From assembly GCF_044647545.1 (NCBI RefSeq), contig NZ_CP172818.1: DNA of 64,000 bases; one strand, given 5' to 3'. Shown piece after piece: positions 4,501 through 14,614 of this stretch. This stretch comes from Escherichia coli. GTDB lineage: Bacteria > Pseudomonadota > Gammaproteobacteria > Enterobacterales > Enterobacteriaceae. A program made the translations under genes and the position numbers. The notes below the pieces were generated by a model. The model saw only the letters and a list, made by a program, of their open reading frames with translations. It was not told where the DNA came from and ran no database searches. Positions within the stretch are counted from its first letter, which is position 1, and each line of letters opens with the position of its first letter.

Positions 4501-5448
4501 ATGAGACAAACTCTTTGCGACGGATATCTGATCATTTTTGCGTTAGCACAGGCCGTGATTCTGCTGGCGCTAACCCCGCTTTTTACGGGGATTTCCCGGC
4601 AGATACGCGCGCGTATGCACTCCCGTCGCGGACCGGGGATCTGGCAGGATTATCGCGATATCCACAAACTGTTTAAACGCCAGGAAGTTGCGCCGACATC
4701 TTCAGGTCTGATGTTCCGCCTGATGCCGTGGGTATTAATCAGCAGCATGCTGGTGCTGGCGATGGCCCTACCACTATTTATTACTGTTTCCCCTTTTGCG
4801 GGCGGCGGCGATCTGATCACCCTTATCTATCTTCTTGCCCTATTTCGTTTTTTCTTTGCTCTTTCCGGGCTGGATACCGGAAGCCCCTTTGCGGGAATCG
4901 GTGCCAGTCGCGAGTTAACGCTCGGCATTCTGGTCGAACCCATGCTCATTCTCTCACTGCTGGTATTGGCGCTGATAGCGGATTCCACGCATATCGAGAT
5001 GATCAGCAAGACGCTGGCGACGGGCTGGAACTCGCCGCTAACCACCGTACTGGCGTTACTGGCCTGTGGTTTTGCCTGCTTCATTGAGATGGGAAAAATT
5101 CCCTTTGATGTTGCTGAAGCAGAACAGGAATTACAGGAAGGCCCGCTGACCGAATATTCCGGTGCCGGGCTGGCGCTGGCGAAGTTGGGGCTGGGGCTGA
5201 AACAGGTCGTGATGGCATCACTGTTTGTGGCCCTGTTTCTGCCCTTTGGGCGCGCGCAAGAGCTTTCTCTCACCTGCCTGCTGACTTCACTTGTCGTTAC
5301 GCTGCTCAAGGTTTTGCTGATTTTTGTTCTGGCCTCTATCGCAGAAAACACGCTGGCACGCGGGCGATTTTTACTCATTCACCATGTGACCTGGCTTGGC
5401 TTCAGCCTTGCTGCGCTTGCCTGGGTCTTCTGGTTAACCGGTCTGTAA
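4501..5448 (+). CDS. hyfC: Hydrogenase-4 membrane subunit (NuoH/HycD-like)
   Basis: 315 aa from ATG 4501 (MRQTLCDGYLIIFALAQ...); hydrophobic; upstream ggaaatcacc RBS. Confidence 0.9.
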   Translation: MRQTLCDGYLIIFALAQAVILLALTPLFTGISRQIRARMHSRRGPGIWQDYRDIHKLFKRQEVAPTSSGLMFRLMPWVLISSMLVLAMALPLFITVSPFAGGGDLITLIYLLALFRFFFALSGLDTGSPFAGIGASRELTLGILVEPMLILSLLVLALIADSTHIEMISKTLATGWNSPLTTVLALLACGFACFIEMGKIPFDVAEAEQELQEGPLTEYSGAGLALAKLGLGLKQVVMASLFVALFLPFGRAQELSLTCLLTSLVVTLLKVLLIFVLASIAENTLARGRFLLIHHVTWLGFSLAALAWVFWLTGL

Positions 5449-7570: not shown

Positions 7571-9151
7571 ATGAGTTATTCTGTGATGTTCGCTTTACTC
7601 CTGCTCACGCCGCTGCTTTTTTCGCTGCTCTGTTTTGCCTGCCGGAAATGGGGACACTCTGCGACTCGCACGGTGACAGTACTACATAGCTTAGGGATCA
7701 CACTGCTGCTGATTCTGACACTGTGGGTGGTCCAAACTGCCGCTGATGCGGGAGAAATATTCGCTGCGGGACTGTGGCTTCATATTGATGGTCTGGGCGG
7801 TTTGTTCCTCGCCATTCTTGGTGTGATTGGCTTTCTCACCGGTGTTTACTCGATTGGCTACATGCGTCATGAAGTGGCACACGGCGAGCTTTCACCCGTT
7901 ACGCTGTGCGATTACTACGGTTTCTTCCATCTGTTTTTGTTCACCATGCTGCTGGTTGTTACCAGCAATAACCTGATTGTGATGTGGGCGGCGATCGAAG
8001 CCACCACCTTAAGCTCGGCGTTTCTGGTAGGCATTTACGGTCAGCGTTCATCGCTGGAAGCTGCATGGAAGTACATCATTATTTGTACTGTTGGTGTCGC
8101 TTTTGGTCTGTTCGGTACCGTGCTGGTATACGCCAACGCCGCCAGCGTTATGCCGCAGGCAGAAATGGCGATATTCTGGAGCGAGGTTCTTAAGCAATCG
8201 TCCTTGCTTGACCCAACATTAATGCTGTTGGCCTTTGTGTTTGTGCTAATTGGCTTTGGCACCAAAACCGGGCTATTCCCCATGCACGCCTGGCTGCCAG
8301 ATGCTCACAGTGAAGCGCCGAGTCCGGTCAGCGCCCTGCTCTCCGCCGTATTGCTGAACTGCGCGCTATTGGTGCTGATTCGCTATTACATCATTATTTG
8401 CCAGGCCATCGGCAGCGATTTCCCCAACCGGTTGTTGCTCATCTTCGGCATGTTGTCGGTTGCCGTGGCGGCATTTTTCATTCTGGTACAGCGGGACATT
8501 AAGCGTCTGCTGGCGTACTCCAGCGTGGAGAACATGGGACTGGTCGCGGTGGCGTTAGGCATTGGCGGGCCGCTGGGAATTTTTGCCGCGCTGCTGCACA
8601 CCTTAAACCACAGTCTGGCAAAAACGCTGCTGTTCTGCGGTTCCGGCAATGTACTGCTCAAGTACGGCACGCGCGATCTCAACGTCGTCTGCGGAATGCT
8701 CAAAATCATGCCATTTACCGCCGTGCTGTTTGGCGGCGGTGCGCTGGCGCTGGCCGGGATGCCGCCCTTCAACATTTTTCTTAGCGAATTTATGACCGTT
8801 ACCGCCGGACTGGCGCGTAATCACCTGCTGATTATCGTCCTGCTGTTATTGCTGTTAACGCTGGTGCTGGCGGGCCTGGTACGGATGGCTGCGCGGGTGT
8901 TAATGGCGAAACCGCCGCAGGCCGTTAACCGGGGTGAACTTGGCTGGTTGACCACCTCGCCAATGGTGATTCTGCTGGTCATGATGCTGGCGATGGGAAC
9001 GCATATTCCACAACCTGTCATCAGGATCCTGGCGGGCGCTTCCACTATAGTCCTCTCAGGGACGCACGACCTGCCTGCACAACGTAGCACCTGGCATGAT
9101 TTTTTGCCTTCAGGCACCGCATCTGTTTCGGAGAAACACAGTGAACGTTAA
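7571..9151 (+). CDS. hyfF: Hydrogenase-4 membrane subunit, antiporter-like
   Basis: 526-aa polytopic ORF; third antiporter-like paralog in the operon. Confidence 0.9.
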
Positions 9152-10856
9152 TTCATCGTCAAATCGTGGCGAAGCGATTCTCGCCGCCCTGAAAACGCAG
9201 TTCCCCGGCGCGGTGCTGGATGAAGAGCGACAAACGCCTGAACAGGTCACCATTACGGTGAAAATCAATCTGCTGCCTGACGTTGTGCATTATCTTTATT
9301 ATCAACATGATGGCTGGCTTCCGGTCCTGTTTGGCAACGACGAGCGGACACTTAACGGTCATTACGCGGTTTATTATGCCCTTTCTATGGAAGGGGCCGA
9401 AAAATGCTGGATCGTGGTGAAGGCACTGGTCGATGCCGACAGTCGGGAGTTTCCGTCAGTCACACCGCGCGTCCCTGCCGCGGTCTGGGGCGAGCGAGAA
9501 ATTCGCGATATGTACGGGTTGATTCCGGTTGGCCAGCCGGATCAGCGTCGGCTGGTGTTGCCCGATGACTGGCCGGAAGATATGCATCCGCTGCGCAAAG
9601 ACGCGATGGATTATCGACTGCGCCCAGAACCGACGACTGATACCGAAACGTATCCGTTTATCAACGAGGGCAACAGCGATGCGCGGGTGATCCCTGTCGG
9701 CCCGCTGCATATCACCTCCGATGAACCAGGTCACTTCCGCTTGTTTGTGGATGGCGAGCAAATTGTCGATGCTGATTACCGCCTGTTTTATGTCCATCGC
9801 GGCATGGAGAAACTGGCAGAAACGCGGATGGGCTACAACGAAGTGACCTTCTTATCCGACCGCGTGTGTGGGATTTGCGGTTTTGCCCACAGTGTGGCCT
9901 ATACCAACTCGGTTGAAAATGCACTGGGGATTGAGGTGCCGCAACGAGCGCATACTATTCGCTCGATTCTGCTGGAAGTCGAACGGCTGCATAGTCATTT
10001 GCTCAACCTTGGCCTCTCCTGCCATTTTGTTGGTTTTGATACCGGCTTTATGCAATTTTTCCGCGTGCGGGAAAAGTCGATGACGATGGCGGAATTGCTG
10101 ACCGGGTCGCGTAAAACCTACGGTCTGAATCTGATTGGTGGTGTTCGCCGCGATATTCTCAAAGAGCAACGTCTGCAAACGCTGAAACTGGTGCGCGAGA
10201 TGCGCGCCGACGTGTCGGAGCTGGTAGAGATGTTGCTTGCCACGCCGAATATGGAACAACGCACTCAGGGCATTGGCATTCTCGACCGACAAATCGCCCG
10301 TGATTATAGCCCCGTAGGGCCGCTGATCCGCGGCAGTGGCTTTGCCCGTGATTTGCGCTTTGATCACCCCTACGCCGACTACGGCAATATTCCCAAAACG
10401 CTGTTTACCTTTACCGGCGGCGATGTCTTCTCCCGCGTGATGGTCCGTGTCAAAGAGACGTTTGATTCGCTGGCAATGCTGGAATTTGCCCTCGACAACA
10501 TGCCAGATACCCCACTGCTGACCGAAGGCTTTAGCTATAAACCTCACGCATTCGCGCTGGGCTTTGTTGAAGCGCCACGTGGTGAAGACGTGCACTGGAG
10601 CATGCTCGGTGATAACCAAAAATTGTTCCGCTGGCGCTGTCGTGCCGCCACCTACGCCAACTGGCCAGTGCTGCGTTACATGCTGCGCGGCAATACCGTT
10701 TCTGACGCACCGCTGATTATCGGTAGCCTTGATCCCTGTTACTCCTGTACCGACCGTGTGACGCTGGTTGATGTGCGCAAGCGCCAGTCAAAAACCGTGC
10801 CGTATAAAGAGATCGAACGCTACGGCATTGATCGTAACCGTTCGCCGCTGAAGTAA
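9141..10856 (+). CDS. hyfG: Hydrogenase-4 [NiFe] large catalytic subunit
   Basis: N-terminal NiFe ligand motif [10 protein letters not shown] and C-terminal DPCYSCTDR. Start ambiguous: GTG 9141 (overlaps hyfF stop by 11 nt) or ATG 9096. Confidence 0.9.
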
Positions 10857-12572: not shown

Positions 12573-12601
12573 GAAGGATTTCTCATTAATAAGGACTGTT
12601 G

Positions 12602-14614
12602 ATGGCTATGTCAGACGAGGCGATGTTTGCCCCGCCGCAAGGAATAACAATTGAAGCGGTAAACGGAATGCTCGCGGAGCGGTTAGCACAGAAACACGGC
12701 AAGGCGTCTTTATTACGCGCCTTCATCCCGCTGCCGCCGCCGTTCAGCCCGGTACAACTTATTGAACTGCATGTTCTCAAAAGCAACTTCTATTACCGCT
12801 ACCATGATGATGGCAGCGATGTGACGGCAACAACAGAGTATCAGGGTGAGATGGTCGATTATTCGCGCCACGCCGTCCTTCTCGGCAGTAGTGGAATGGC
12901 GGAGCTACGCTTTATTCGCACCCACGGCAGTCGTTTTACTCCCCAGGATTGCACACTGTTTAACTGGCTGGCACACATAATCACTCCGGTTCTGCAATCA
13001 TGGCTCAATGATGAAGAACAGCAGGTGGCGCTGCGTTTGCTGGAGAAAGATCGCGATCATCATCGGGTACTGGTGGATATCACTAATGCAGTGTTGTCAC
13101 ATCTTGATCTCGACGATCTGATCGCTGACGTCGCTCGTGAGATCCATCATTTTTTCGGTCTGGCTTCAGTCAGTATGGTACTGGGCGATCATCGAAAGAA
13201 CGAGAAGTTCAGCCTGTGGTGCAGCGATCTTTCTGCCTCACATTGTGCGTGTCTGCCACGCTGTATGCCTGGCGAAAGTGTATTGCTGACACAAACGCTA
13301 CAAACCCGACAACCGACCTTGACGCACTGTGCAGACGATCTGTTTCTCTGGCAACGCGACCCGTTATTACACTTACTTGCATCTAACGGCTGCGAATCTG
13401 CGCTCCTTATACCGCTCACCTTTGGCAACCATACACCGGGTGCATTGTTGCTGGCGCATACCTCTTCCACTCTCTTTAGTGAGGAAAACTGCCAGCTACT
13501 ACAACATATTGCCGATCGCATCGCTATTGCCGTTGGCAATGCCGATGCCTGGCGCAGCATGACCGATTTGCAGGAAAGCTTGCAGCAAGAAAACCACCAG
13601 CTTAGCGAGCAGCTCCTTTCGAATCTGGGCGTCGGTGACATTATCTATCAAAGCCAGGCAATGGAAGACCTGCTCCAGCAGGTAGATATTGTGGCGAAGA
13701 GCGACAGTACGGTGTTGATTTGTGGTGAAACCGGAACCGGCAAAGAGGTGATCGCCAGAGCGATCCATCAACTTAGCCCACGACGCGACAAGCCACTGGT
13801 CAAAATCAACTGCGCTGCCATCCCCGCCAGTCTTCTGGAAAGTGAGTTATTCGGTCATGACAAAGGGGCATTTACTGGTGCGATTAATACCCATCGTGGT
13901 CGTTTTGAAATTGCCGATGGCGGCACGTTGTTTCTCGATGAAATTGGCGATCTGCCGTTAGAACTTCAGCCTAAACTGCTGCGCGTATTGCAGGAACGGG
14001 AGATTGAGCGTCTCGGCGGGAGTAGAACGATCCCGGTAAATGTCAGAGTCATTGCCGCCACCAACCGTGATTTGTGGCAAATGGTTGAAGATCGCCAGTT
14101 TCGCAGCGATCTCTTTTATCGCCTGAATGTCTTCCCACTGGAACTGCCGCCACTGCGCGACCGTCCGGAAGATATCCCTCTTTTAGCAAAGCATTTCACG
14201 CAAAAAATGGCGCGCCATATGAATCGCGCAATTGACGCCATCCCGACCGAGGCGCTACGCCAGTTGATGTCGTGGGACTGGCCGGGCAACGTGCGCGAGC
14301 TGGAAAACGTGATTGAGCGAGCGGTACTACTGACTCGCGGTAACAGTCTGAATTTACATCTTAATGTCCGACAAAGCCGTTTACTGCCGACGCTAAATGA
14401 AGATTCAGCGCTTCGCAGTTCAATGGCGCAGTTACTGCACCCGACGACGCCAGAGAATGACGAAGAAGAACGTCAGCGCATTGTTCAGGTATTGCGAGAA
14501 ACCAATGGCATTGTTGCCGGGCCCCGTGGCGCGGCGACACGATTAGGGATGAAGCGCACCACGCTGCTGTCACGAATGCAGCGTCTGGGGATCTCGGTTC
14601 GCGAGGTGTTGTAA
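12602..14614 (+). CDS. hyfR: Sigma-54-dependent transcriptional activator of hyf (FhlA paralog)
   Basis: 670 aa from ATG 12602; Walker A GETGTGKE, sigma-54 contact motif GAFTGA, C-terminal HTH. Confidence 0.92.

Follow-up and report, generated by a model that had tools for sequence, protein, structure and literature searches.

The window (the whole stretch of Escherichia coli DNA that was analyzed, 64,000 nucleotides) carries hyfF and hyfG, two genes of hydrogenase 4 (FHL-2) that meet in a short overlap. HyfF was matched from residue 1 to residue 526 of 526 by the NCBIfam equivalog NF005041, "hydrogenase 4 subunit F", with 1174 bits against a cut-off of 951. HyfG contained the Pfam domains PF00329, PF00374, and PF00346 (Complex1_30kDa, NiFeSe_Hases, and Complex1_49kDa), and a 586-aa form of the protein matched HycE of the solved FHL-1 complex (PDB 7z0s chain E) with 971 bits over residues 22-586. 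HyfG and HycE, the large subunit of hydrogenase 3 (FHL-1), share a domain order in which a NuoC-like N-terminal domain precedes a NuoD/[NiFe] large-subunit domain, and HycE was aligned with HyfG from HycE residue 4 to the C-terminus. The 2 genes differ in the gene that lies upstream, which is hyfF for hyfG and hycD for the HycE gene. Both the N- and C-terminal nickel-binding CxxC pairs were present in HyfG (RVCGICGF and DPCYSCTDR/VTLV), with a C-terminal assembly peptide after the Arg; R/VTLV is the HyfG-type cleavage site (PMC7384014). The full-length NF005041 match and the HycE-like Pfam domains bear out the identities given to hyfF and hyfG in a first-pass annotation of this DNA.

The genes hyfABCDEFGHIJ are annotated contiguously on one strand, and this gene order was kept in all loci fetched. 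Besides hyfF-hyfG, overlaps were found at hyfH-hyfI (4 nt) and hyfI-hyfJ (8 nt), and the remaining hyf junctions were gaps of 4-29 nt. Over the 701 bases around the hyfF-hyfG junction, identity was 100% with strain FDAARGOS_497 and 98.7% with K-12-type strains. Of 5426 complete E. coli genomes, 4294 gave a megablast match to the junction region; at that sensitivity, about one fifth of complete genomes were without it. Features of the 2 genes are listed in Table 1.

Table 1. Positions of hyfF and hyfG features in the window
Feature	Position	Strand	Basis
hyfF CDS, 526 aa, antiporter-like membrane subunit of hydrogenase 4 / FHL-2	7571..9151	+	ORF list; RefSeq annotation of 100%-identical strain; NF005041
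In-frame ATG of the hyfG frame, inside hyfF, built from hyfF codons CAT GAT	9096..9098	+	most likely no initiation codon
Shine-Dalgarno (SD) GGAGA of hyfG, inside hyfF 3' coding region	9130..9134	+	duplex energy; invariant in 17-sequence junction alignment
hyfG CDS, 571 aa, group 4a [NiFe]-hydrogenase large subunit, full-length allele	9141..10856	+	annotation; HycE 7z0s_E match; Pfam
hyfG initiation codon GTG	9141..9143	+	GTG in 18/18 taxa; RefSeq annotation; PMC7384014; HycE alignment
11-nt hyfF/hyfG overlap GTGAACGTTAA	9141..9151	+	sequence; same overlap in 2 nearest relatives (L020, L021) and K-12
hyfF stop codon TAA	9149-9151	+	sequence
48-nt segment (16 residues, hyfG codons 386-401), deleted in K-12/BL21 hyfG	10296..10343	+	allele comparison
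10-nt direct repeat GCCCGTGATT bounding the 48-nt segment	10296-10305 and 10344-10353	+	sequence

The start codon of hyfG

Open from 9051 onward, the hyfG frame offers 2 candidate starts within hyfF, ATG 9096 and GTG 9141. The first-pass annotation had placed both codons and the hyfF TAA correctly from the sequence, and rightly stated that the cistrons overlap with either start and that the overlap from GTG 9141 is 11 nt. From ATG 9096, however, the overlap (9096..9151) is 56 nt and not the 55 nt that it gave. The annotation had also held that the choice between the 2 codons could not be made from sequence alone.

GTG 9141 was preceded by GGAG at 9130-9133, 7 nt upstream, with a predicted duplex to the 16S rRNA 3' end of -6.6 kcal/mol. 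Among 584 ATG/GTG/TTG triplets of the operon region, this energy ranked in the top 4%, and the other hyf cistrons, at -5.1 to -9.3 kcal/mol, bracket it. The same GGAGA doubles as the codon for a conserved Glu of the HyfF tail. For ATG 9096, the 20 nt upstream gave an anti-SD duplex of -1.5 kcal/mol, no better than 73% of start-like triplets. Over the 30 open codons upstream of the GTG, an ATG would be expected by chance with a frequency of approximately 38%, and any of ATG, GTG, or TTG with a frequency of approximately 76%, if uniform codons are assumed; the upstream in-frame ATG is no more than chance predicts.

The junction was compared across 18 taxa: Escherichia, its nearest relatives (loci L020 and L021), Klebsiella indica, four Citrobacter, Phytobacter, Kosakonia, Yokenella, Serratia, Shimwellia, Morganella, Proteus, Brenneria, Dickeya, and Shewanella. 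A HyfF scan of genome contigs had given 8 loci, one of which (L010) was without the hyfG N-terminal motif, and the sample was widened by way of homologous proteins and the contigs encoding them. The start homologous to 9141 was GTG in all 18 taxa; (A)GGAG preceded it by 6-8 nt, and the SD energies lay between -6.4 and -8.6 kcal/mol. In an alignment of 17 junctions (118 columns), GGAGA and GTGA were the only invariant blocks. The residues after the GTG were conserved across taxa as V-N/S-Y..., and then ...LAA(L/V)...QFPGA(V/I)L(D/E)EE. ATG 9096 was missing from the nearest relatives and from most other taxa. L020 and L021, which share with E. coli a 526-aa HyfF and the 11-nt overlap GTGAACGTTAA, have CAA at this site, and their open frame holds no alternative start; across the nearest relatives, K. 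indica, and C. amalonaticus the site reads CAA or CAC. The ATG was confined to E. coli, and 2 Citrobacter genomes have an unrelated GTG there. The open hyfG frame reached back only 3-48 nt from the GTG, to an in-frame stop, in K. indica, Citrobacter NCU1, Phytobacter, Brenneria, Kosakonia, Yokenella, Shimwellia, Dickeya, Proteus, and Morganella. What these comparisons show is where the start and its SD lie, that the SD is conserved, and that ATG 9096 is not.

The alignment with HycE (7z0s_E) began by pairing HycE residue 4 with residue 22 of the 586-aa form, or residue 7 when the 571-aa form is counted. With the GTG start, HyfG would therefore have an N-terminus 3 residues longer than that of HycE, and the ATG would add 15 residues that are unmatched. 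This N-terminal comparison favors GTG 9141 and argues against treating the start as undecidable. The same GTG and 11-nt overlap were found in every RefSeq record inspected, namely MG1655, a K-12-type strain, O157:H7, BL21, and the strain identical to the window. In MG1655 (NC_000913.3), hyfF (b2486) occupies 2606917..2608497 and hyfG (b2487) begins at 2608487; the junction is identical to that of the window from -82 to +40 around the hyfF stop, with the same GTG and TAA. Finney et al. (2019) stated that hyfG initiates at GUG in E. coli and Pectobacterium atrosepticum (PMC7384014). In P. atrosepticum, which has a functional FHL-2, hyfG likewise lies directly downstream of hyfF (PMC7384014), and the Brenneria and Dickeya loci, which are related to it, have AGGAG-N7-GTG with overlaps of 11 and 8 nt, respectively. 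No direct experimental data on the N-terminus or initiation site of E. coli HyfG came up in a literature search, and HyfG was absent from the TRAINSPOTTER N-terminomics supplements. Such scarcity is unsurprising, since the operon has been described as silent under laboratory conditions.

Other starts were weighed against these results. Initiation at ATG 9096 would lengthen HyfG by 15 residues at the N-terminus, to 586 aa. In favor of this codon, no other ATG precedes it in the open frame, and no start codon is used more often than ATG; however, it is without an SD, it is missing from the nearest relatives and most other taxa (with stops separating it from the GTG in several), the extension has no counterpart in HycE and no Pfam coverage, and none of the annotations inspected used it. 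We regard exclusive use of ATG 9096 as extremely unlikely. Use of both codons in E. coli, with a long and a short HyfG isoform, draws on the fact that both are in frame there and would involve weak initiation at 9096. The same objections of SD, conservation, HycE alignment, and annotation apply to it, and hyfF ribosomes elongating through position 9096, within a cistron that is being translated, would be expected to displace weak initiation complexes. Two genuine starts would each need conservation and a ribosome-binding signal of their own, and ATG 9096 has neither; we consider a pair of isoforms very unlikely. A true start downstream of 9151, which the first-pass annotation had named as the finding that would overturn an overlap, could be sought at the next in-frame candidates, GTG 9213 and GTG 9258, but their SD energies are only -1.7 and -3.2 kcal/mol, respectively. 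The residues encoded by 9141-9213 are conserved across taxa and with HycE (HycE stretch ...LAALNEAFPGVVLD), so this segment is coding and such starts were rejected; we give a downstream start, and with it the absence of an overlap, practically no credence.

Taken together, 4 independent lines of sequence evidence (the SD; the comparison across 18 taxa, with a conserved GTG and an absent or isolated ATG; the HycE alignment; and annotation and literature) agree in pointing to GTG 9141 as the hyfG start, and the view that sequence cannot settle the matter does not hold up. The junction is ordinary and already known, in that the GTG start and 11-nt overlap match curated annotation and a published statement. 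The conservation of GUG in 18 taxa is a small extension of the remark made for 2 species in PMC7384014.

Also trivial is the ambiguity over the start codon of hyfR in this operon (window 12599-12604), which the mechanical ORF list began at TTG 12599 (671 aa) and RefSeq at ATG 12602, one codon later. The SD energy for ATG 12602 was -5.9 kcal/mol.

Spacing of hyfF and hyfG and translational coupling

Spacing between hyfF and hyfG ranged from a 23-nt overlap to a 3-nt gap across the 18 taxa. The overlap was 23 nt in K. indica and three Citrobacter, 14 nt in Shimwellia, 11 nt in E. coli, L020, L021, and Brenneria, 8 nt in Dickeya and Shewanella, and 4 nt in Citrobacter NCU1, Phytobacter, Yokenella, and Serratia. 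Gaps instead of overlaps were present in Proteus (1 nt) and in Morganella (3 nt, as taken from called-gene coordinates). Kosakonia was ambiguous, with a 2-nt gap from GTG 4087 (the gene caller's start) or a 4-nt overlap from GTG 4081. In no taxon, nevertheless, were stop and start more than 23 nt apart, and this close juxtaposition, recurring in 18 of 18, exceeds chance. Because its length varies, the overlap itself does not appear to be the selected feature; the HyfF tail also varied among taxa in sequence and length. Compared to K. indica and Citrobacter, E. coli, L020, and L021 were without 12 nt (four codons, Y-x-D-S) just after GTG-AAC, as determined from window positions 9144-9149 and positions 4574-4591 of loci L003, L004, L005, and L009. 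The lack of these four codons shortens the overlap from 23 to 11 nt and trims the N-terminus of HyfG as well as the C-terminus of HyfF.

Classical coupled cistron pairs that overlap include trpE-trpD and trpB-trpA, with junctions of the ATGA or TGATG type, and cistrons that overlap or adjoin at such spacing usually show measurable coupling. The hyfF-hyfG junction has the features of these pairs: its genes are operon neighbors on the same strand, the hyfG SD (9130-9134) is inside the upstream coding region, and the upstream stop (9149-9151) is a few nt from the downstream start (9141). It differs in the length of the overlap, 11 nt as opposed to the typical 1 or 4 nt; the hyfH-hyfI and hyfI-hyfJ junctions are of the classical coupled-pair type.

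In the explanation that we favor, the GGAGA within the last hyfF codons would direct initiation of hyfG at GTG 9141, giving the 571-aa protein, and ATG 9096 would be an unused chance by-product of the hyfF codons CAT-GAT. Counting from the first base of the hyfG start, the hyfF stop is reached after 8 nt, and ribosomes that have completed HyfF would therefore be freed on the hyfG ribosome-binding site. Proximity coupling, either as termination-reinitiation or as a local supply of ribosomes, is probably added to ordinary SD-driven initiation; both its occurrence and its strength are what we infer from the arrangement. Taken as a whole (GTG 9141 with its GGAGA, an unused ATG 9096, and probably some coupling through proximity), we hold this explanation with high confidence. 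Coupling of hyfG to hyfF is reasonable and plausible from proximity, and the chances that it is functional appear to be about even or slightly better.

Coupling in which mRNA structure masks the ribosome-binding site was considered and rejected. The E. coli RNA fold of 9081-9200 had a z of -0.08 relative to shuffled sequences, which is no unusual stability, and RNAalifold found 0 conserved pairs in 17 junctions. A small UGUUUC/GGA/GAAACA hairpin around the SD was specific to E. coli. A full-text literature search returned nothing on translational coupling in the hyf operon. In P. atrosepticum, deletion of hyfDEF, the upstream membrane-subunit genes, increased HyfG and did not decrease it (PMC7384014), which speaks against coupling; HyfG abundance in that organism responds to loss of the genes upstream.

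The overlap could also be incidental, with hyfG initiating independently at its own SD and GTG, the HyfF tail running on to the next available stop, and no coupling at all. The hyfF stop does drift relative to a fixed hyfG start (overlaps of 23, 14, 11, 8, and 4 nt, and gaps of 1-3 nt), the poorly conserved HyfF tail drifts with it, the strong and invariant SD would be enough for independent initiation, and no conserved or unusually stable structure ties the ribosome-binding site to upstream translation. However, the drift never exceeds 23 nt in 18 taxa, so terminating ribosomes would stay on the ribosome-binding site, and spacing of this kind is generally accompanied by coupling that can be measured. 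We consider an incidental overlap a serious possibility that falls short of even chances. At the other extreme, the constant GGAGA, the 6-8 nt spacer, and GUG-A, always at most 23 nt from the hyfF stop, could form a selected translational set-point that ties HyfG synthesis to completion of HyfF, with the weak GUG keeping output sub-maximal. All 18 taxa retain GUG, Proteus and Morganella among them; in these two it is outside any hyfF overlap and so free of HyfF coding constraint, which suggests selection on a weak non-AUG start. This stronger reading is tentative and, in our estimation, rather unlikely; if true, it would still be an ordinary kind of gene-expression tuning.

The result for the junction, with GTG 9141 as the start and some coupling probable, matters little in itself, as it only removes an apparent ambiguity of the hyfG start. 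For engineering of hyf expression, 9130-9143 should stay intact. Two substitutions that are silent in hyfF would separate the candidates: CAT to CAC at 9095-9097 abolishes ATG 9096, and AGT to AGC at 9140-9142 abolishes GTG 9141 (changing it to GCG).

A 48-bp deletion allele of hyfG

The hyfG alleles differed in length. HyfG of the window has 571 aa, and that of K-12 and BL21 (WP_001102321.1) has 555 aa as the result of an in-frame internal deletion of 48 bp. The deletion was present in the K-12/BL21 loci that were compared (L002, L011, and L023), in contrast to the O157:H7 locus (L022), in which the segment was intact. The missing 48 bp lie between two copies of GCCCGTGATT, an arrangement typical of deletion by slippage. 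The segment, with its GP(L/M)(I/V)R(G/A)SG motif, was kept in 18 of 18 taxa, and GPxxRxSG is also conserved in HycE, in the alpha subunit of Pyrococcus MBH, and in the 49-kDa/NuoD/NdhH subunits of bacterial, mitochondrial, and chloroplast complex I. This conservation indicates that the deletion is the derived state and that an element of the conserved core is lost with it.

Among 60 genomes drawn systematically from the 4294 complete genomes with hyf, 30 had the intact allele and 29 had the deletion, or about half each; a check of allele lengths bore this out. The intact allele was found in O157:H7, O104:H4, and others, and the deletion in MG1655, BL21, O26, O111:H8, and others. Alleles were counted with a K-12 query spanning the deletion junction, the match being read as one piece or two. 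Use of the 48-nt segment itself as a megablast query undercounted the intact allele (350 genomes), as O157:H7-type lineages differ from it at 2 sites and hold no 28-nt exact word.

From the conservation of the segment we infer that the 48-bp deletion would inactivate HyfG. Finney et al. (2020) combined promoter swaps and a swap of the HycE C-terminus in 15 K-12 strains, never observed hydrogen from Hyd-4, and concluded that "additional, unknown, biosynthetic problems" hinder assembly (PMC7654741). Lindenstrauss and Pinske called FHL-2 of E. coli a "long-standing mystery" (bioRxiv 10.1101/563510). No paper linking Hyd-4 inactivity to the 48-bp deletion was found in a search that did not extend to older subscription papers, including the original 1997 description of hyf. 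The inactivity of Hyd-4 in K-12 has been called unexplained by two groups. The deletion may explain why hydrogenase-4 activity has never been observed in K-12, and this allele of hyfG could matter more than the hyfF-hyfG junction.
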